A stretch of 51,186 nucleotides of DNA from a virus. Lineage: Duplodnaviria > Caudoviricetes. Numbering within the stretch: the first letter of the stretch is position 1; every line of letters starts with the position of its first letter. The stretch is taken from positions 1-51,186 of IMG/VR virus record IMGVR_UViG_3300002461_000224. One strand, 5' to 3'. A program made the translations under genes and the position numbers. The notes beneath the pieces are model-generated. The model was not told the origin of the DNA. It worked only from the letters and a program-made list of their open reading frames with translations, and did not search any database. This document shows positions 5,334-50,466 of this stretch, piece after piece.

Positions 5334-5692
5334 GTACCTGTCCTTTGGAGAGCTTCGCGGGCGCGAAGGATGATCGGGGCTCTGCCGTTGCCAAGAAGCG
5401 CCTCGCGCTCAATTTCGGCATCGGTGTAGTTGGTCCAGCCCATCTGCCCCAAGCATTCGTCGAGCGACGTCCTAAGATCCGCAATGTTTGCCGCCACTTC
5501 GTTATAAGTCCGCTCGCCAAGGGCCGCTTCGTAGGCACGCTCGTTGGACTCAAGTTCCTCGATGCGGGCGGCGGCTTCATCCAGAAGAACCTCGGTCGAT
5601 AACGGCGCGTCATTAATTCGCGACCGCAGCCGCTCCACAATGCCGGGCTGCCTGCTCTGTACTGGGTTCATCGGGTTCTCCTCTGCGCTCAT
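5330..5692 (-). CDS. Hypothetical phage protein
   Basis: IVERLR...EAAARIEELE motif common in phage early proteins. Confidence 0.7.
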   Translation of the reverse strand: MSAEENPMNPVQSRQPGIVERLRSRINDAPLSTEVLLDEAAARIEELESNERAYEAALGERTYNEVAANIADLRTSLDECLGQMGWTNYTDAEIEREALLGNGRAPIILRAREALQRTGT

Positions 5693-6069
5693 GTTCGGCG
5701 CTCGATCGGTCGCGAGGCAGTGCGCTGGGCCGGCCGCTTCTCGAAACCTCTGGACCGTATTTTCTGGCCCGGCTTCTTGATCCCGAGATGCTTGGCGCGC
5801 TTCCGATACACCATCGCCTTTTCGGCGACGTCGGCCGCTGTCTTCTCGCGGTGCGGGGCCTTCAGCGCTGGTGCCAGATTTTTTTCGCGATGCTCGCCAC
5901 CATTAGCGAGAGCAATAATGTGATCGCAGTCCCAGGCTTCACCTGCCCGGATTCGGCGACCTGAGAGATGGCAGATGCCGCCGTGGCGATCAAAAACCCT
6001 AACCCGCACGCGAGGAGGGATTGCTTGGTCATCATGCTTTGCTATCCACTCTGGGGGTGTTCTGGTCAC
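5689..6069 (-). CDS. HNH endonuclease
   Basis: DHIIALANGG...NLAPA...H; GTG start at 6069 overlaps upstream stop. Confidence 0.85.
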   Translation of the reverse strand: MTRTPPEWIAKHDDQAIPPRVRVRVFDRHGGICHLSGRRIRAGEAWDCDHIIALANGGEHREKNLAPALKAPHREKTAADVAEKAMVYRKRAKHLGIKKPGQKIRSRGFEKRPAQRTASRPIERRT

Positions 6070-6683
6070 GCGGCTTGCCCTTCCATCTCGAGAGCGCCGC
6101 GGGAGCGGAGCCAGAAGAACAGAAGCTTTGCGCGCTGGATGTCGCCCCATGCGCTGTGGGGGCCGGAGCGGGGCGGCTCGTTGAGCAGCAGTTCGCAGGC
6201 CTCGTCTAGGGACGGCAATTTGTAGCTGCCCGACTCGTGCTCGGACGGGAGTTTGCAGAACGGGGTTGCCAAGGTCATCGTGTCGACGAACTGCAGGCCG
6301 GGCCGGACCCAGGTTGTCGCGTCGCGCCCATTGCGGGCGAGTACCGAGGTGATGACGTCCCGGTCGAACGCTAGGCCGTGACCCACGACAAAGCGGGCTT
6401 GGCTGGCGAGGCTTTCGCGCCCGCAGAGCACTCCGAGTGCGGCTAACTCCGAAACGCCTGTACGGCCCGCTAATGCGCTTGAAACGCCATGCACCTTTTG
6501 TGCGCCTTCGGAGATGCGGCGGCCGTTCGCGCGGATGCCGGTGCTGATGCAGGCAAGCTGGCGGCCCTTGTCGTCGCACAGTTCCGCTGCGAGTGAGACC
6601 ACCCACGGCTGCTGGTCCGAATCCATGGGCAGGTTCTTCTTGAACAGGCCGGAGGTCTCGCAGTCGACGAAGAGGAGCGTCAC
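6066..6683 (-). CDS. DnaQ/DEDDh 3'-5' exonuclease
   Basis: FVDCETSG, VGHGLAFD, DTM and HSAWGD motifs. Confidence 0.88.
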   Translation of the reverse strand: MTLLFVDCETSGLFKKNLPMDSDQQPWVVSLAAELCDDKGRQLACISTGIRANGRRISEGAQKVHGVSSALAGRTGVSELAALGVLCGRESLASQARFVVGHGLAFDRDVITSVLARNGRDATTWVRPGLQFVDTMTLATPFCKLPSEHESGSYKLPSLDEACELLLNEPPRSGPHSAWGDIQRAKLLFFWLRSRGALEMEGQAA

Positions 6684-6859
6684 GACGGTACTCCGCACTT
6701 TCCACAGCCATGCAGCCACTCGTTGGCGATCTTGCGAGAAGTCCAGCCTTCGCGCTTCGCTTCGGCCCAAGCGTCACTAAAATCATCTGTGCCCGGCTCG
6801 AATAACTCGGGACAGGAATCACACTCGAAAATCAGTTTCCCGTGCTGGCGATCAATCAT
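6680..6859 (-). CDS. Small Zn-ribbon protein
   Basis: CDSC...AKREGW...CGKC. Confidence 0.7.
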   Translation of the reverse strand: MIDRQHGKLIFECDSCPELFEPGTDDFSDAWAEAKREGWTSRKIANEWLHGCGKCGVPS

Positions 6860-17305: not shown

Positions 17306-17694
17306 CGGAAGAGGAAATCCAGCGCGCGGTCGAAATGATGCGGACGGGCTACGGGCTGGCCCGGATCGCTCTTGAACTGAACAAAAACAAGAGAATCGTC
17401 CAGCACCACATTCGCCAGCGCACCATGAGCAAGGAAGAGCGCGCGATCTACAACGCAAAGCGCGCCGACGCCGACAGGGAGCGGAGAGCCGCGCGCGGCG
17501 GCAGGAAGCCCTTCGTTGCCAATGACGGCATCGGGACCGCCGGGAATGTCGGGTCCGTGAAGCCGAGCCAGGAATTGCTTGCCGACCGGGACCGCAGGCG
17601 CTCGCGTCCCTTCACGATAGCCAACGACATCCTGGGCGACCCCGAGCCGGGCAGGTCCGCTCTCGACCAGCGCATGAACGGAGCAATGGCATGA
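17302..17694 (+). CDS. HTH-containing hypothetical protein
   Basis: GYGLARIALELNK; GDPEPGRSAL motif. Confidence 0.65.
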   Translation: MTEEEIQRAVEMMRTGYGLARIALELNKNKRIVQHHIRQRTMSKEERAIYNAKRADADRERRAARGGRKPFVANDGIGTAGNVGSVKPSQELLADRDRRRSRPFTIANDILGDPEPGRSALDQRMNGAMA

Positions 17695-18212
17695 AAACGG
17701 GAGAAAAGTTGGTCGGGGAAGAATGGCGTGCCGTTGTCGGCTTTGAGGGCCGGTACGAAGTCTCATCCTTTGGTCGCGTCCGCGGCATTGGTAGTCATGG
17801 AGGTGGGATCAAGAAATCCCATGCGTCGAACGACGGCTACTACCAGCAGGTTTGCCTCTACGTCGCGACAAAAAAGACCAAGAGTGTTTGCGTTCACGCA
17901 TTGGTGGCGGAAGCGTTCATTGGGCCGCTTCCCCCGGGGCAGCTTTGCTGTCATCGGGACGGTGACGGCTGGCATAACCATCTCTCAAACCTTCGGTATG
18001 GCACGCCGAAATCAAATGGCGAGGACATGGTGAGGCACGGGAATAGCCTCCTAGGCTCGCGCAACCACCAAGCCAAATTGGACGAAACAATCGTCGCCGA
18101 GATCAAGACAAGGCGAGGTGTCCGATATCGGGACCTTGCTCAGGAGTACGGGGTTTCGTTCGCGACTATTCAGAAAATCATGAGCGGGGAGGGATGGAAG
18201 CATGTCGCATAA
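17691..18212 (+). CDS. NUMOD4-HNH homing endonuclease
   Basis: EEWRAVVGFEGRYEVSSFGRVR; HRDG...NHLSNL. Confidence 0.9.
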   Translation: MKTGEKLVGEEWRAVVGFEGRYEVSSFGRVRGIGSHGGGIKKSHASNDGYYQQVCLYVATKKTKSVCVHALVAEAFIGPLPPGQLCCHRDGDGWHNHLSNLRYGTPKSNGEDMVRHGNSLLGSRNHQAKLDETIVAEIKTRRGVRYRDLAQEYGVSFATIQKIMSGEGWKHVA

Positions 18213-26224: not shown

Positions 26225-26737
26225 ATGCTTAGTTCTCCTCAACTTCGCCAGTTGCTTGATTATGATCCGGCAACTGGCGTCTTTTTGTGGAAGCCCCGGG
26301 CCAACGTCACCAGAACTGAAAAGAGCTGGAACGCGAGGTTCGCAGGCAAACTCGCTGGCCGCATCAACAACCAAGGCTATCGGGAGATCGCCATATTCGG
26401 GAAGCTCTACAAGGCCAGCCGCCTTGCGTGGCTTTACATGACTGGCGAATGGCCGGCCGACATGATCGACCACCAAGATCGGAACAGGGCCAACGATAGC
26501 TTCTCCAACTTACGAGAGGCGACCCCTGCGCAGAATAGTCAGAACGCAAAACCGCGCAGTAATAAGACCGGCTTCCAAGGCGTGTTTCTGCATAAGCCAA
26601 GCGGTCGGTTCACGAGCCAAATCCAGGTCGCCCGGCAGCGCATCAGCCTCGGGTACTTCGACACACCAGAGTTAGCCCATCAAGCCTACGTGGAAGCCTT
26701 GAGCATCCATCACGGCGAGTTCGCATATCCCTCATAA
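26225..26737 (+). CDS. HNH-AP2 homing endonuclease
   Basis: YDPATGVFLW, RLAWLY, IDH.D.N..N...NLR, LGYFDTPE. Confidence 0.9.
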   Translation: MLSSPQLRQLLDYDPATGVFLWKPRANVTRTEKSWNARFAGKLAGRINNQGYREIAIFGKLYKASRLAWLYMTGEWPADMIDHQDRNRANDSFSNLREATPAQNSQNAKPRSNKTGFQGVFLHKPSGRFTSQIQVARQRISLGYFDTPELAHQAYVEALSIHHGEFAYPS

Positions 26738-44098: not shown

Positions 44099-46139
44099 CG
44101 ACATCTTCGCCCGCTACTCGCGCGGGGCCAGCAAGCCGAAGGAGGAGGTTGTCGTCGTCCCCAACGACGATATCTTCACGCGGTTTGACCGGCCGGCCGA
44201 GGTGGTTGCGGCGAAAGCGGCACCCAAGGCCGCCCCCAAAGCCGAGCCCCGTGTTGACCTCGGTTCCGGGTTCCAGAACCGGATGGCGAGCAGCGTGCCG
44301 ATCCTTGGGCCTATCTTTGACAAGGCCACGGCGGCGACCGGCGCCGCAGTTGAACCGCTCGTCAGCGAAGAGGCCGCGGGCAAGTCGTTCGGCCAACGCT
44401 ACGGCGAAAACGTCGCCTTGCAGGAGGAAAAGAACCGCCTTTACGGAGAAGAAAACCCCGTGAGGGCGTTTGGCGCCGATGTCCTCGGCTCCGCCATGCT
44501 TTTCGGGCCGATGGGCGCGACGAAATGGGGCTCCCGCGCGCTCGGCATGGTCGGTTCCAGCCTCGGGACGAAGGTGCTGCAAGGTGCCGGCGGGATGGCC
44601 GGAATCGAGACGGCCAACCAACTCCTCAAGGGCAACGATCCCCGAGACCAAGGCTTCACCGGCCCCGTTCCGCTTGCAGCGGCCGGAGGAGCCGCAGGGC
44701 CGATGCTGGGCGAGGCTATTTCCTCTGGCGCCAACAGGCTGTTCAATATGCTGCCGCGCACCAGCGGTCCCCTAAAGGGCACCAACACCATCACCCGCAA
44801 CAGACTGACGGACGCCATCGAGGGCGAAACCGAGGCATCTATCGCGGCGGCCAAGGAAGCACACGGCAAATCCGGCATGTTGATGGATATCAACCAGGGC
44901 ACGCGCGACATCGCGGGCGGGCTGGCCGATATTCCGGGCCCCCACAAGGGCCAAATCCGCGAAACGCTCCGGCAGCGGGGCGCCGGGCAGGCGGATCGGC
45001 TGATGGACTCGCTCAACAAGAACGCTGTGCCGCAGGTTAAGATTGCCGACCTCGTGAAGACGGTCGAAAACTCCCAAAGTGCGGAGGCGGGGCCGCTTTA
45101 CACCCAATTCCGCACCATGCGGGTGGCACCGACCAAGGAAATCAAGGATTTGCTGCCCCGTTTGGAGAAAGCGGGTGCATTCAAGCTGGCCGACGAGCTT
45201 TCCGGCATCAGCGGCCGGCAGATGGAGCAGAATTTCTTCACGGGAGGTCCCAACAAGGCGTTCCCGACCGCCGAGGCATGGGATTACGTCAAGCGCGGCC
45301 TCGATCGGCGCATCAGTTCGGCTCTTGACGGCGGCGACAAGGAGCTTTCCCGCGAATTGGTCAAGCTGAAGTCCGACATGCTGTCCGAAATCGGCAAAAC
45401 CCCGGCCGGCAAGGTCTGGCAAAAGGCCAGGCAGACCTTCGCCGAGCACGCCGAGATCAAGCACCAGATCGAGGAGGGTCAGAAGACCTTCAGCAGGGCC
45501 ACAAGGGCCGATGATTTGGCCCAGGAACTGGCCAACCTAAGCTATCCCGAGCGCGCCGCGCGCCAGCAGGGGGCCAGAGACGCCATCCAGCAGGTGATAG
45601 ACAACAGCCTGAGGGGCGACACGACCGCCCGCAACCTGCTGCTGACCCGCGCAGGCCGCGAAAAGATGGATTTGCTGTTCGGCGACAAGCGGGCAGGCCG
45701 GCTTATCAAGGATCTGGAGGCAGAACTGAACGTCTCCAAGAACACCAACGAGATCGTAGGGGGCAGCCCGACATCCTCAAAGCAGGCGCGGCGCGACGGG
45801 TTGCTGCCGCAGCGCTCGGAACCCGGCTATCTCCGCAATATCGACCTCACCCGCCCGTCCACGCTGATTCCGGACTGGATGACGCCGCAGGCTATGATGG
45901 AGGGGGCAGCCGCGGCACGTCACGGCGCGTCTCATCAGCAATTGGCCGATCTGATGAGGATGCGGACAGATGCGCCCGGATTCGATCATCTAGTGACTGA
46001 GATTCGGAATGAAGGTGCTCGTCAAGCGAGCCGTAATGCTCAGTTTGATCGGGCTGGGCGCGCGACTTCGCTTGCTCTTCAGACCATTGCGCCTGCTGTG
46101 CGGAACAGACTTCTTGAAGGGCCAGACGCTCGTAAATGA
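44082..46139 (+). CDS. DNA ejection/internal virion protein (gp16 position)
   Basis: 685 aa helical; G/A-rich hydrophobic segments; GGSPT. Confidence 0.75.
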   Translation: MSIVSDDIFARYSRGASKPKEEVVVVPNDDIFTRFDRPAEVVAAKAAPKAAPKAEPRVDLGSGFQNRMASSVPILGPIFDKATAATGAAVEPLVSEEAAGKSFGQRYGENVALQEEKNRLYGEENPVRAFGADVLGSAMLFGPMGATKWGSRALGMVGSSLGTKVLQGAGGMAGIETANQLLKGNDPRDQGFTGPVPLAAAGGAAGPMLGEAISSGANRLFNMLPRTSGPLKGTNTITRNRLTDAIEGETEASIAAAKEAHGKSGMLMDINQGTRDIAGGLADIPGPHKGQIRETLRQRGAGQADRLMDSLNKNAVPQVKIADLVKTVENSQSAEAGPLYTQFRTMRVAPTKEIKDLLPRLEKAGAFKLADELSGISGRQMEQNFFTGGPNKAFPTAEAWDYVKRGLDRRISSALDGGDKELSRELVKLKSDMLSEIGKTPAGKVWQKARQTFAEHAEIKHQIEEGQKTFSRATRADDLAQELANLSYPERAARQQGARDAIQQVIDNSLRGDTTARNLLLTRAGREKMDLLFGDKRAGRLIKDLEAELNVSKNTNEIVGGSPTSSKQARRDGLLPQRSEPGYLRNIDLTRPSTLIPDWMTPQAMMEGAAAARHGASHQQLADLMRMRTDAPGFDHLVTEIRNEGARQASRNAQFDRAGRATSLALQTIAPAVRNRLLEGPDARK

Positions 46140-46305
46140 CACGTATCAAGCCGCCCATGACGCCGCCAACGAATATCGCGGTGAATGCGCCGGCCGTTGT
46201 TTGCAGGAAACCAGTCGACGCCATCCACGCAAGGATGCCGAACCCGACCACGTAAGTCAGAACCACCAGCCGGCCGTGCTTCGTAAGTAACGGTTCGCGC
46301 GCCAT
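45892..46305 (-). CDS. Antisense two-TM membrane protein, possible superinfection exclusion
   Basis: Two hydrophobic helices in the intergenic part; 3' end overlaps the ejection gene. Confidence 0.5.
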   Translation of the reverse strand: MAREPLLTKHGRLVVLTYVVGFGILAWMASTGFLQTTAGAFTAIFVGGVMGGLIRVIYERLALQEVCSAQQAQWSEEQAKSRAQPDQTEHYGSLDEHLHSESQSLDDRIRAHLSASSSDRPIADETRRDVPRLPPPS

Positions 46306-46318
46306 TCAGGAAAATTCG

Positions 46319-46411
46319 ATGCTCTCATTCAGGAGCCGCGTTCGCGCGGCGTTCCTCGGCCTTGCTTTGGTCGGATCATACGCCGGTTCGGTTCAGGGCG
46401 GAACCCTGCTC
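46319..46411 (+). pseudogene. Orphaned 5' segment (signal peptide plus TLL) of the tail-fibre gene
   Basis: MLSFRSRVRAAFLGLALVGSYAGSVQGGTLL; AGGA RBS; TLL recurs at 47193-47201. Confidence 0.6.
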
Positions 46412-47107
46412 TCGGGCGGCTCGTTTGTTCCTCCAAGGGGCGCCCGGGCCATTGACGGCATAGAAGTTGGTCGCCTCTTGATACGAAACCCCCAGTCTTT
46501 TGGCTCGGTTCCCGATGCAACTCCCGGATATTCCGAGTTCCCGGCTCGCCTCGGCAACGGTCAGATTGATGCCCTTGATGACCACGCGGCGGTTAAAACT
46601 GCCCCGGTTTCTCTCTTGGGTGTCCCAGTCCGCCCAACGACAATTTCCGGGTTCGTAGTTCCCTTCACTTCGGATTCTATCCAGCGACAGACCTGCGGGA
46701 ACTTCGCCCATGTCGGCGAGGAAATTCTCGAACGACGCCATCCATCGCTCGCAAACGGTAATCCCGCGCGCCCCGTAGAGGCGAAATTCCTTGGTCTTTG
46801 GGTTGTAGCAGCGCTGCTTCATCCCGCTCCAGCAATTGTAGGTCCGCGAATACTGGGTGCGGCTTCGGTGCCCGTGCGTGCCTTTCCACTGGCTGCCCTG
46901 TTCTCGGGCCAAGCAGCCGCACGATTTGGTGTTGCCGCACCGGAGTTTGTTTTCCTCAACAACGGTTTCTCCGCCGCAGGAGCAGCGGCATGAGACGCAA
47001 TAAATCTTGTGCCCGTTCTTTTTCCTCAGCTTTGGATCGGCCTGCCCAATGACTGTCAATCGTTCAAAAACCTCGCCTGGTTGGATTGGCCGCCGTGCCG
47101 TTGACAT
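46376..47107 (-). CDS. HNH-type homing endonuclease, antisense to late genes
   Basis: RLTVI, CRCSCG, TKSCGC, WSGMKQRC, YGARGI, SLDRI...GNYEPGNCRWA; GGAG RBS. Confidence 0.9.
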   Translation of the reverse strand: MSTARRPIQPGEVFERLTVIGQADPKLRKKNGHKIYCVSCRCSCGGETVVEENKLRCGNTKSCGCLAREQGSQWKGTHGHRSRTQYSRTYNCWSGMKQRCYNPKTKEFRLYGARGITVCERWMASFENFLADMGEVPAGLSLDRIRSEGNYEPGNCRWADWDTQERNRGSFNRRVVIKGINLTVAEASRELGISGSCIGNRAKRLGVSYQEATNFYAVNGPGAPWRNKRAAREQGSALNRTGV

Positions 47108-48713
47108 CGCTCGCTCCGCTTGTGTGGGGGGACTATCATGGTTACTGGTTGCTACGATTTTTACAAGCACGAATAACCCTGCAAAATCAGCTACTTTGCT
47201 CCCAAATGGAATGCAGTATTTTGCGGACTCCAACGGGCTCCCGTTGTCCGCTGCCTGCGTCTATTTCCTGATCCCCGGCACGATGAGCCCCAAGGCCACC
47301 TACCAGGATGCCGGCCAGACCATCGCCAACACCAACCCGGTCCAACTGGACGCGGCGGGCCGGGCGATCATTTACGGGACCGGCACCTATCGGCAGATCG
47401 TCAGGGCGTCGAACGGGACCATTACGCCGTGCTCGCCGGCGGGAACCCAGATTTGGGACCAGCTTACCGCCTCGACGGACTCCTCGGCCACGATCTTTGC
47501 TGGCCCCTCGGCCGGGACGCCGAACGCCATCACGGTCAATGCGCCTGCGTTCTCCGGGACCGATGGTCAGGTCATCAACTACATCTCGACCAACACGAAC
47601 ACGGCGGCGGCGACGCTCAATCCTTCCGGGTTTGGGGCGGTGCCGATCGTGCGGGACTCGGCAACCGGGCCCGGGGCGCTGACCGGCGGCGAACTGGTCG
47701 CCACGAATGCCGTTTCCGTCATCTACGACGCCACGGCAGGCACGTTCCACATCCTGTCCCCGGTGACATGGCCGAACACTTCGGGCGTCCCGGTGGGCAC
47801 GACAATCGAGGTGAGCGGCTTCACGGCGCCGACCAACTACGCCTTCGCCTATGGGCAGGAGATTAGCCGCACGACGTACTCCTCCCTGTTCGCGGTCCTG
47901 ACGGCCGGACAGGCCGGGACGATCTCGAGCGGGTCCCCAACCATCACGGGTTTGACCGATACGACGCAGTTCGGCCGCGGCATGCCGGTGGAGAGCGTCG
48001 GCATCAACCCCGGCACCACGATCCTGAGTTGCACGTCGACCACCTGCGACATGAGTTCCAACGCCACGGTCTCGCGCTCGGGGACCATGACGTTCTTTGC
48101 CTATAGCGCGGGCGACGGGTCGACCACGTTCAACCTGCCGGACTACCGCGGCATGGTTCTGGTTGCCCGGGACAATCTCGGCGGCACGGCGGCGAACCGG
48201 GTTCAGGTCACCACGACGCTGACCACCACGGCGACCTCCACGTCGGCAACGGTGGCCTCCGCCACGGGCCTCCAGCTCGGGATGGTCGTCACCAGTGCAA
48301 ACGTGGTGAGCGGCACCACCATCACCGCCATCAGCGGGACCACCCTTACCCTGAGTTCTCCGGCCTCTGGCTCGGCCATCGGTGCCGGGGCGCGGTTCAG
48401 CCCGTTCGCTGACGCCCAGGTTCTCGGCGTCGGCACCGCCGTCATGAGCGGCACCTTGGTCACGGCCAACCTGCCGCCCTATACGCCGGCGGGCACGAAC
48501 ACGGCCGGCGCGGCTTCCTACACGTTCAGTTCGGCGTCGTTCACTCCGGGCGCCAACGCCGTGCAAGGCACCTCCATCAGCGCCGGCGGCGGCACAGCCT
48601 CGCAGTTCACCAACCCGACCTTCGGTGGAACGCCGCAGGGCGGCACCAGCATCCCCTTCAGCGTCATCCAGCCGTCCCGCACCGTCAACCGCGCAATCAA
48701 GTTGGTGCCATGA
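47049..48713 (+). CDS. Tail fibre with tail-collar domain; start uncertain
   Basis: NTNPVQLDAAGRA; GQEISRTTYSSLF; GDGSTTFNLPDYRG; QPS. Confidence 0.88.
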   Translation: MTVNRSKTSPGWIGRRAVDIARSACVGGLSWLLVATIFTSTNNPAKSATLLPNGMQYFADSNGLPLSAACVYFLIPGTMSPKATYQDAGQTIANTNPVQLDAAGRAIIYGTGTYRQIVRASNGTITPCSPAGTQIWDQLTASTDSSATIFAGPSAGTPNAITVNAPAFSGTDGQVINYISTNTNTAAATLNPSGFGAVPIVRDSATGPGALTGGELVATNAVSVIYDATAGTFHILSPVTWPNTSGVPVGTTIEVSGFTAPTNYAFAYGQEISRTTYSSLFAVLTAGQAGTISSGSPTITGLTDTTQFGRGMPVESVGINPGTTILSCTSTTCDMSSNATVSRSGTMTFFAYSAGDGSTTFNLPDYRGMVLVARDNLGGTAANRVQVTTTLTTTATSTSATVASATGLQLGMVVTSANVVSGTTITAISGTTLTLSSPASGSAIGAGARFSPFADAQVLGVGTAVMSGTLVTANLPPYTPAGTNTAGAASYTFSSASFTPGANAVQGTSISAGGGTASQFTNPTFGGTPQGGTSIPFSVIQPSRTVNRAIKLVP

Positions 48714-49555
48714 TGAGAAAACTTCTTGTTGCGGCCCTAGTTTGCTTGCTGGGGGCCACGGCCGCGCACGCCCAGAAAACCAAGGCGGAGATCAGCGCGG
48801 AGATTATCACGCTGTTCCCCGACAATACCGTGGGGGCGATCACGCCGACGGCACTGCGCACGGTGACGAACGACCTCGCCATCTCGATCATGCCGACCGC
48901 GCCGGTGGTTTCCGGGAACCTTGCGTGCTTCAGCGGCACGACCGGGCTGCTGTCGGACTGCGGCCTTGCACCCCCGGCCAGCGCCATCGTCGGCATCAAC
49001 GACACCCAGACCCTGACCAACAAGACCCTGACGTCCCCGACCATCACGGGGGCCACGATCTCGACCTCGGTCCTTGCATCCCCGACCATCACGAGCCCCA
49101 CCATCACCACGGCGCTCACCGCAACCGGGCTGGTGAAGTATTCGGACCTCGCCACCGCGGCGATCGCGACCGCCTCGAACTATTACTCGGCCGCGGCGAA
49201 CACCGTGGTTCCGGCGAGCGTGATCTACCCGAGCGAGGTGACGATTACCTACGGGGCCACGACGACGGTTGATTTCGACACCCTCATCAACGGCGCGGTC
49301 ACCCTTACCGCCAACATCACGACGCTGACGCTCACCAATGTTAGGGCGGGCAAGGCCGGGCAGATCAGGTTCATCCAGTCCGGGGCGGGTTCCTTCACAT
49401 GGCCCGCCGGCGGGAACACCATCCTCAAATATGCCGGCGGCGTGCTGCCGACGCTCACGACCGGATCGGCAACGGCGGTTGACGTGCTGACCTATTCCTG
49501 CAGCAGCGCGACCTTCTGTCTTGCCGCGCTGGCCAAGGACGTCCGCAACCCATGA
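48710..49555 (+). CDS. Signal-peptide-bearing tail fibre-like protein
   Basis: MMRKLLVAALVCLLGATAAHA; TQTLTNKTLTSPTI; PTLTT...VDVL. Confidence 0.8.
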   Translation: MMRKLLVAALVCLLGATAAHAQKTKAEISAEIITLFPDNTVGAITPTALRTVTNDLAISIMPTAPVVSGNLACFSGTTGLLSDCGLAPPASAIVGINDTQTLTNKTLTSPTITGATISTSVLASPTITSPTITTALTATGLVKYSDLATAAIATASNYYSAAANTVVPASVIYPSEVTITYGATTTVDFDTLINGAVTLTANITTLTLTNVRAGKAGQIRFIQSGAGSFTWPAGGNTILKYAGGVLPTLTTGSATAVDVLTYSCSSATFCLAALAKDVRNP

Positions 49556-50466
49556 GCCTGCGCCGGGCGCTGCTGGGAGGCCTCGTAGCGCTTCTGGCGC
49601 TGCCGCTGGGCGCGCGCGCGAACATGCCCGGCACCTACATGCCGGTGCAGGGATCGGTGCTGTCGTGCACCGGCGGCAGCGTCAGCACGACCGGCAATTT
49701 CACGGTCCACACGTTCACGTCCAGTTCCAACCTGGTCTGCGTGGGATCGGGGTCGGTCACCTACCTCCTTGTCGCGGGCGGTGGGGGAGGTGGCGGCGGG
49801 ACGGATTCGGGCGGGGGCGGTGCGGGCGGCGTCATAGCCGGCGGCGAAACACTCGCCGCAGGCACGTTTGCCGTGGTTGTGGGCGCCGGTGGTACGGGCG
49901 GCGACTCGGCGGGCGCCAACTGCACCTCTGGCGGAAACTCGACCTACAACAGCCACACGGCCGGCGGCGGGGGCTGCGGCGGTGCCGTGCTGCTCAACGG
50001 TCTCACGGGCGGCAGTGGCGGCGGTGGCGGCGGGCAGGCGGCCTCGACGGGCGGCGCGGTGAACGGGCTCGGGACGGGCAACTCTGGCGGTCCCGGCGTC
50101 ACCGGCGGCGGCGGGGCTCCGCGCGCGGCGGGCGGCGGCGGTGGCTGCGGCGGCAACGGCGTGACTGGCAGCGGCGCCGGCGGCGGCGGGGGCGGCAATG
50201 GCTGCTCCAACTCAATCACGGGGTCCGCGGTGACCTATGCGGGCGGCGGGGCCGGCGGCAACGAAGGCGTCACCAACTCCAATATCAGCGGCGGCACCGG
50301 TGGCGGTGGCGGTACGGCGGGCGGTGCCGGGGGCGGCGCTGGCGTGGCGGGCACCAATGGTCTCGGCGGAGGCGGCGGCGGGGCAACCCGCAACGGCGGG
50401 GCAGGGAGCTTTGCCGGCGGCAACGGCGGATCCGGTGTCGTGATCGTCAGATATCCAACCCCATAG
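49552..50466 (+). CDS. Signal-peptide-bearing glycine-rich fibre-tip protein
   Basis: MSLRRALLGGLVALLALPLGARA; VHTFTSS; YLLVAGGGGG; GGSGVVIVRY. Confidence 0.85.
   Translation: MSLRRALLGGLVALLALPLGARANMPGTYMPVQGSVLSCTGGSVSTTGNFTVHTFTSSSNLVCVGSGSVTYLLVAGGGGGGGGTDSGGGGAGGVIAGGETLAAGTFAVVVGAGGTGGDSAGANCTSGGNSTYNSHTAGGGGCGGAVLLNGLTGGSGGGGGGQAASTGGAVNGLGTGNSGGPGVTGGGGAPRAAGGGGGCGGNGVTGSGAGGGGGGNGCSNSITGSAVTYAGGGAGGNEGVTNSNISGGTGGGGGTAGGAGGGAGVAGTNGLGGGGGGATRNGGAGSFAGGNGGSGVVIVRYPTP

Follow-up and report, generated by a model that had tools for sequence, protein, structure and literature searches.

The DNA considered here (the window) is the whole of the IMG/VR virus record IMGVR_UViG_3300002461_000224, a linear record of 51,186 base pairs (bp) with a completeness estimate of 90% and, judged by PHROG matches across its length, a podovirus-like structural module. 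Downstream of its connector and large-protein genes and upstream of its endolysin gene lies a tail-fibre gene whose 5' end is split by a gene on the opposite strand, which encodes a free-standing, HNH-like protein of the homing-endonuclease type (the nuclease). Read in the direction of the fibre gene, the locus has four parts: a remnant of the gene's old start and leader, the antisense nuclease gene, a short spacer that encodes a second leader in the fibre frame, and the mature part of the fibre (Table 1). The fibre frame is open from 47007, with A-TLL-PNGMQYF encoded at 47190-47219, and its product matches Pfam Collar PF07484 (E 2.1e-10, 40.8 bits vs a cut-off of 24) as well as PHROG tail-fibre families.

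Table 1. Features of the split fibre locus, followed by other features of the window
Feature	Position	Strand	Basis
Old-leader remnant: start codon, signal-peptide-like leader MLSFRSRVRAAFLGLALVGSYAGSVQG, G-TLL	46319..46411	+	homology to the P0009 leader; remnants in L007 and L009
48 nucleotides (nt) present in the window and not in L007/L009: QGGTLL of the old leader plus filler in the nuclease C-terminal tail	46394..46441	.	alignment A1, codon view
Left junction, window: remnant ends after GTLL; 48 nt of filler before the nuclease's ...NFY			
Left junction, L009: remnant ends after GGSIA; 15 nt of filler before the nuclease's ...NFY			
Left junction, L007: remnant ends after GSVAMG; no filler before the nuclease's ...NFY			
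Open reading frame (ORF) of 224 codons that begins with the old leader and reads on into the nuclease gene, codon for codon in antisense	46319..46993	+	open reading frame
HNH-like free-standing homing-endonuclease-type gene (243 residues)	46376..47107	-	PHROG 374
Spacer, 85 nt, GC 0.49	47108..47192	+	hydrophobic core and cleavage-type motif of the second leader
Spacer, opposite strand: GGAG of the nuclease gene (47114-47117), presumably its promoter	47108..47192	-	sequence
Probable expressed form of the tail-fibre ORF: MTVNRSK... from a conserved in-frame ATG, then the second leader, then the mature protein (TLLPNG onwards, starting at 47193)	47049..48713	+	Pfam, PHROG
Large terminase	27989		PHROG
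Portal	29799		PHROG
Scaffold	35500		PHROG
Adaptor and head-closure proteins	38568, 39541		PHROG
Two large proteins	42641, 44082		second is phrog_5880 (no known function)
Further HNH-labelled gene	5689-6786	-	PHROG
Further HNH-labelled gene	17691-18212	+	PHROG
Further HNH-labelled gene	26225-26737	+	PHROG

Read from ATG 46319, the old leader is MLSFRSRVRAAFLGLALVGSYAGSVQGGTLL; by hand, it can be divided into a MLSFRSR... start, a hydrophobic core and V-Q-G ahead of GTLL. The residues TLL are encoded twice, as ACCCTGCTC at 46403-46411 and as ACTTTGCTC at 47193-47201, and excision of 46412-47201 (790 nt, 1 mod 3) fuses the 46319 frame to the 47007 frame at PNGMQYF. This in-frame join had been noticed in a first-pass annotation made from the letters alone, and it is confirmed both by the coordinates and by a natural uninterrupted allele, P0009. 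The description of the insert as almost entirely nuclease ORF was likewise accurate, as the ORF takes up 696 of its 790 bases (88%); the nuclease stop codon lies outside the insert, inside the old leader, and the ORF thereby crosses the left junction. GC content is 0.62 for the window, 0.665 for the fibre gene, 0.58 for the nuclease gene and lower still for the spacer (Table 1), and the values of the last two, below that of the phage, suggest a foreign origin. At least half of the sequence words of the stretch are present in 8 sequencing runs from 5 studies and both junctions are bridged by contigs from other runs; the arrangement is not an assembly artefact.

Relatives were collected by scanning viral contigs, metagenome contigs (80 of 339 relatives kept) and genome contigs (40 loci), and are referred to below as loci (L numbers) or as proteins and protein clusters (P numbers). 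In loci L002-L006, L008, L010, L011 and L015-L021, among others, the leader is fused directly to (A/G)TLLPNG. The proposal that the insertion had replaced an older leader depended on such HNH-free relatives having a leader of the 46319 type, and they do: P0009 shares 30 of 31 residues with the window's remnant over the leader and TLL. In the N-terminal part of the mature protein, P0009 is 95% identical to the window's fibre over 110 columns, with 11 mismatches in the first 195 residues, and identity drops past about residue 195, which shows mosaicism. The N-part of the window's fibre is nearest to an HNH-free allele, whereas its C-part is nearer to other alleles. The insert is thus polymorphic for presence and absence, with P0009, L019 and L002-L006 free of the HNH-like gene and the window, L007 and L009 carrying it.

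The fibre N-domain (TLLPNG..F.D.NG; L002-L133, P0001-P0088) occurs in leaderless and in leader-bearing forms across many clades. Leaderless forms start with M-A-TLLPNG or the like (MA|TLLPNG, MTA|TLLPNA). In leader-bearing forms the start carries positive charge, the core is hydrophobic and a small-x-small motif closely precedes (A/G)TLLP. By such signal-peptide features, which were judged by hand, the 88 relatives divide into 65 with a leader of at least 15 residues that contains a hydrophobic core, 12 whose N-termini are short and 11 that are unclear.

Adjacency of nuclease and fibre genes was surveyed with tblastn over 134 records (133 loci and the window), several of the loci being duplicate views of one contig. 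The nuclease adjoins the fibre N-domain in the window (copy L001), in L007 (=L014) and in L009 (=L012) and, in more distant form, in L055 and L114. Both L007 and L009 have the four-part layout of the window, with nucleases 70-71% identical and fibre N-parts 78-79% identical to those of the window. A scan of the viral contigs for the 5'-end pattern of the nuclease gene returned only these two. Among the proteins, six fibres begin MTVNR[SP]KTSP...; because this is the antisense of the nuclease N-terminus, such a start marks a carrier. Three more fibres were called from an internal Met of the second-leader type. The nuclease P0091 and the fibre P0032 each come from a contig of at most 14,630 bp, which suggests that they belong to one locus.

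Each remnant has a near-identical intact counterpart of its own (P0009 for the window, P0016 for L007, and L019 or P0017 for L009). This pattern points to several entries into distinct intact alleles, or to recombination with them. A quick tree of the mature N-domain was built from 7 loci and 69 proteins, namely the first 71 of the 88 less P0053 and P0070, in which the motif was not found. Carriers are scattered over this tree, at a cost of 10 changes for 11 rows, with 4 of 72 branches well supported.

In the two more distant loci, the nuclease family lies beside the fibre gene in other ways. At L055:107-1378, a 43%-identical nuclease gene and a leaderless fibre gene stand back to back with their ATGs 3 nt apart, so that the upstream signals of each gene must lie inside the other. 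At L114:1684-2998, on a contig of a Bdellovibrionales metagenome-assembled genome, a 37%-identical nuclease gene has the same orientation as the fibre gene. Between it and the full fibre gene, at 2262-2474, lies a truncated copy of the first ~40 fibre codons, which has diverged; this copy is another stranded 5' fragment beside this nuclease family.

The left boundary of the insert differs in all three DNA loci (Table 1). The first-pass annotation saw the insert as flanked by a TGCTC/TLL direct repeat, which is true of the window; the repeat is absent from L007 and L009. Nuclease C-termini fall into a group with a long tail that ends in old-leader antisense (the window, P0092, P0096 and P0099, with P0093 similar) and a group with a short tail (P0089, P0090, P0094, P0095, P0097 and P0098). 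Because the L007 and L009 junctions and the short-tail group differ from the window, the repeat is a trait of one sub-type and not of the element. Such variation is consistent with a first, illegitimate join at microhomology and later deletions or separate events.

The 224-codon ORF that runs from the old leader into the nuclease gene is probably a by-product. It is in register with the nuclease codons and can be stopped only where these are TTA, CTA or TCA. Such codons occur in the nuclease gene only at codons 2 and 39; their rate in 8 long genes is 0.0069 per codon (29 of 4220), at which the chance of an open frame is about 0.24. A function for this ORF was considered and rejected, since codon usage accounts for the frame.

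At the other end of the insert, an AT-rich segment had been described as encoding another hydrophobic leader in the fibre frame, and this second leader, ...VGGLSWLLVATIFTSTNNPAKSA, stands. The spacer measures 85 nt in the window, 73 nt in L007 and 82 nt in L009, each 1 mod 3, and the indels between them in alignment A1 are of 3, 6 and 3 nt. The fibre frame is open at 3 of 3 DNA loci, and every other plus-strand frame is stopped in at least one. The spacer behaves as coding sequence. Second leaders are present in nine further proteins (P0001-P0006, P0012, P0026 and P0032). All 12 have A-x-[AGS] directly before [AG]TLLP (SLLP in one), in sequences that are otherwise divergent; (F/L)TS is usually present, and each has a hydrophobic stretch, whose best 11-residue window scores 1.85-2.98 on the Kyte-Doolittle (KD) scale in 10 of the 12. 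The nine long forms contain 4-7 Lys plus Arg, as assessed by hand. The predicted cleavage product, (A/G)TLLP, is equivalent to the leaderless form after removal of Met.

The second leader has a counterpart among ordinary fibre leaders. With tblastn, the leader of P0015 (MKPLRF...APANSG) aligns with L009 from 18 codons upstream of TLL, and L007 and P0006 keep an ATG (MRNLF... and MWKLS...) where a P0015-like leader would start. From these alignments, we infer that the second leader derives from the genuine leader of another allele, whose start would have stood back to back with the start of the nuclease gene, as the start of a leaderless fibre does in L055. The scan of viral contigs for P0015 did not recover that protein's own locus.

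The start codon of the fibre in carriers is less clear than the leader. ATG 47049 is the only start common to all long forms, six database proteins begin at the same MTVNR..., and translation from it would yield a leader of 48 residues whose n-region is long and positively charged; we take it as the putative start. This ATG requires GTC as the Val-19 codon of the nuclease, which 3 of 3 DNA loci have, although these loci are related and the evidence is weak. A scan for promoters and terminators gave counts near those in shuffled sequence. The nuclease gene itself has an ATG at 47107 with GGAG 6 nt upstream, and GGAG also precedes several other genes of this phage.

The nuclease is a free-standing gene, outside any intron or intein. 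Rfam intron models searched over 46000-47600 on both strands at E<=10 gave none, the sole match being a chance microRNA, and the product cannot be an intein because it is antisense to the host ORF. It belongs to PHROG 374, 'HNH endonuclease' (E 2.9e-60), and matches four more PHROGs with the same label, which is that of the annotators. Its family is very large (7760 relatives at E<=1e-10 among 8000 candidates scored), and the nearest clade comprises eleven clusters, P0089-P0099. Sequence comparison with the PDB gave chance matches only (E>=0.47), and a Foldseek search of the PDB with the AlphaFold model gave nothing at E<=0.001. That model (predicted local distance difference test score, pLDDT, 88.4) has an N-terminal SH3/Tudor-like barrel, a strand-strand-helix unit at 141-167 (strands 141-144 and 156-159, helix 161-167) and C-terminal helices. 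In 54 aligned sequences N155 is invariant and N167 nearly so, and H78, 66 residues upstream of the motif, is invariant as well. The protein is best termed HNH-like, a predicted endonuclease.

By blastn, 17 records of GenBank phages match, all over the nuclease core only, and none has this arrangement. The core (query bases 482-665) matches DNA annotated as 'DNA polymerase' in the Caulobacter phages RW, KcrB, RLK and GB2A; these matches may reflect a nuclease domain or insertion within the 'DNA polymerase' gene.

The anatomy of the locus, its recurrence, its presence/absence polymorphism and the in-frame conservation of the second leader were all observed directly, and the reading that we find probable as a whole is that of a homing-endonuclease cassette that brings a replacement 5' end for the fibre gene it enters. 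A free-standing HNH-like gene would have inserted itself, in reverse orientation, into the 5' end of the tail-fibre gene of a podovirus, at the border where a cleavable leader of signal-peptide type gives way to (A/G)TLLPNG, the conserved beginning of the mature protein. With it would have come a substitute 5' end: an ORF in the fibre frame whose start, at ATG 47049 or closer to the hydrophobic core, falls within the antisense of the first nuclease codons, and whose leader ends in A-K-S before ATLLPNG. This leader would derive from one that belongs naturally to another fibre allele; the nuclease gene probably once occupied an intergenic position upstream of that allele. The fibre would now be made from the second leader, presumably with Sec export and cleavage, and the old start and leader would be left as a remnant that also serves as the left homology arm. 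Provided that the nuclease is active and that its target is the sequence at this border, the insertion would split the cleavage site, so that carriers would be immune and intact alleles open to invasion by homing. The suggestion in the first-pass annotation that a homing element supplies a replacement export signal is supported by the comparison, as every allele seen with the HNH-like gene retains a second leader that is hydrophobic, lies in frame and has a peptidase-type motif.

Several points weigh against this interpretation. Some concern the second leader: the proteins that have it were found with a query that contained the leader, which favours in-frame alleles; four relatives called as leaderless (P0014, P0052, P0053 and P0061) may carry the cassette with its second leader damaged; the leaders called for P0012 and P0026 are only 15 residues long; DNA for the second leader comes from three loci, the window, L007 and L009; and T-rich DNA favours hydrophobic codons anyway. 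Others concern the start. As the first-pass annotation remarked, the second leader has no clear ribosome-binding site, and no Shine-Dalgarno-like motif is found before ATG 47049, GTG 47124 or their L007 and L009 counterparts; moreover, conservation of the MTVNRSK ATG is weak evidence because the nuclease N-terminus constrains it. A single ancient insertion is compatible with a tree in which so few branches are well supported. Finally, the nuclease has no Pfam match (E<=0.01), the Pfam HNH models being silent, and no NCBIfam match. The best structural match of its middle part, the HNH restriction enzyme PacI, is weak (Z 5.7, root-mean-square deviation 5.5 over 93 residues), and its strand motif LDRI places R144, invariant in 54 of 54 aligned sequences, at the usual first-histidine position, where canonical HNH members have His.

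The alternatives that we considered rank well below a replacement leader, chiefly because none of them accounts for the conservation of the second leader. Of these, the one that survives best, although we think it improbable, is that the fibre is made without a working export signal from a start at or near TLL (e.g. TTG 47196), the second 'leader' being the promoter or 5' region of the nuclease gene and open by descent. The many leaderless relatives indicate that a leader is not essential to the fold, the L055 nuclease gene abuts a leaderless fibre gene, the long ORF has no visible ribosome-binding site, and a promoter-like site at 47160-47187 (+) would start RNA near TLL, although the scan that gave this 1 site expected 0.5. 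A promoter alone, however, needs neither A-x-[AGS] nor a hydrophobic core, and 12 of 12 second leaders keep both despite low identity and in-frame indels; the second leader is, moreover, homologous to a natural fibre leader.

We consider it very unlikely that the insertion killed the fibre gene, leaving a carrier that is defective or helper-dependent and a second leader that is accidental. The gene is indeed physically split and its downstream start is uncertain, but the arrangement is shared by at least 3 phage contigs (8-57 kb) that have diverged from one another and by about 12 protein clusters, and the fibre ORFs, of 504-567 residues, are intact and full-length; the same phage sequence is present in runs of several studies; and the mature part is free of decay, with 75% identity to P0001 from end to end. 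Least credible of all is the first-pass suggestion that the 790 nt are removed by DNA excision, RNA splicing or ribosomal bypass, which would rejoin the first leader to the fibre: the removal would be exactly in frame and TGCTC flanks the segment in the window, but no intron or other Rfam family was matched apart from the one chance microRNA, neither the repeat nor the left junction is kept in L007 and L009 (whose remnants lack TLL), the left boundary lies within the nuclease ORF, the bypass in T4 gene 60 spans 50 nt and is thus far shorter than 790 nt, and the conservation of the second leader would be left without explanation.

Homing endonucleases usually spare the host gene by way of introns, inteins or intergenic spacers, and a few split enzymes into two subunits. 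In a review (PMC2988022), the free-standing endonucleases seg (GIY-YIG) and mob (HNH) of T4-like phages are described as splitting nrdA, gene 39/60 and gene 43: mobE lies in nrdA of Aeromonas phage Aeh1, mobA between T4 genes 60 and 39, and gene 43 is split by a seg gene. Endonuclease genes with host promoters inside them are described as well. The element in the window resembles mob and seg in being a selfish nuclease without intron or intein, polymorphic for presence and absence among related phages, that lies inside a conserved coding region without abolishing the gene and has host expression signals in or next to it. It differs from what is described there (PMC2988022) in that both halves of the split mob and seg targets are made and reassemble as subunits, whereas here the downstream part would suffice and the lost N-terminal function (start codon and leader) would be replaced by a copy in the cassette; in addition, the nuclease is antisense to its host gene, and its target is a structural tail fibre rather than a gene of nucleotide metabolism. 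The same source (PMC2988022) mentions HNH endonucleases encoded in group I introns, such as I-HmuI and I-TevIII. With these, the window shares an HNH-labelled nuclease inside a phage gene; unlike them, it has no matched intron RNA core, its nuclease is in antisense orientation and its boundaries vary.

A further parallel is T4 mobA, which reportedly forms one mobile cassette with the translational-bypass segment of gene 60 (Bonocora et al. 2011 PNAS). In that case too, a homing endonuclease moves together with an extra sequence by which the invaded gene stays functional, but the extra sequence is a 50-nt bypass element within one mRNA, whereas here it would be a replacement start and signal-peptide-like leader. 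Elsewhere, nuclease genes are described as sitting at boundaries of genetic exchange between phages (PMC10448857), and the window's nuclease likewise sits at a mosaic boundary, the N-part and the C-part of its fibre being nearest to different alleles; the abstract of that work concerns intergenic nucleases and module exchange and not the replacement of a gene's 5' end (PMC10448857). A full-text search of one library found no paper on a homing endonuclease that supplies a leader or on Sec leaders of tail fibres. The element in the window would work as the known gene-splitting endonucleases do and solve the problem in another way, by replacement of the target's 5' end.

The cost of landing inside a gene seems here to be paid with a spare 5' end, start and leader, for the target. 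Such a spare would widen the sites open to these elements and would explain 'orphan' leaders stranded in phage genomes. The large group of tail fibres with cleavable-looking export leaders (65 of 88), together with the two ORFs downstream of the fibre in the window, is perhaps the more surprising lead, and natural pairs of alleles, with and without the cassette and with and without a leader, make the biology of the leader testable. If the leaders are what they appear to be, Sec export and signal-peptidase trimming of fibres would be an assembly route not known, to our knowledge, for tailed phages. A wider formulation, which we regard as speculative and rather doubtful, is that a homing endonuclease with a portable start codon and signal peptide forms a mobile unit with a general route into genes for exported proteins at the leader/mature border, and that the fibres and two neighbouring virion-type proteins are Sec-exported and trimmed to (A/G)TLLP before assembly.

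Contigs of runs X8-X11 are of low depth and fragmentary, X9 and X10 look like one data set, and they have no bearing on expression or excision. No joint that skips the insert, and no HNH-free form, was seen in them, and no RNA run is among the sequencing runs listed as containing the stretch. A 195-base contig (46218-46412) in runs X9/X10 stops exactly at the left junction, 46412. This end may reflect a branch in the de Bruijn graph, produced by an HNH-free allele present alongside, or just low coverage.

No other copies were found in the record. Three more genes match PHROGs labelled HNH endonuclease (phrog_333, phrog_59 and phrog_99), which gives this phage at least 4 HNH-labelled genes with the nuclease included. 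An 'ejection-type' role for the two large proteins upstream of the fibre is a guess from their size and position. Two further small ORFs lie 3' of the tail-collar fibre, ahead of the endolysin at the end. These ORFs, 48710-49555 and 49552-50466 (+), start with signal-peptide-like leaders, MMRKLLVAALVCLLGATAAHA... and MSLRRALLGGLVALLALPLGARA..., and each overlaps the preceding stop by ATGA; the second matches Pfam Gly_rich_2 and PHROG 2295. With the fibre, they make three consecutive tail-region genes with export-type leaders. On the other side of the locus, ORF 45892-46305 (-) encodes a small protein with two hydrophobic segments. It is divergent from the fibre gene, its ATG lying 13 nt from that of the old leader, and it has an antisense overlap with the end of a 685-codon gene. 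Although tblastn gave it no match in other loci (E<=0.01), L007 has an ORF starting MAREP... at the equivalent position.

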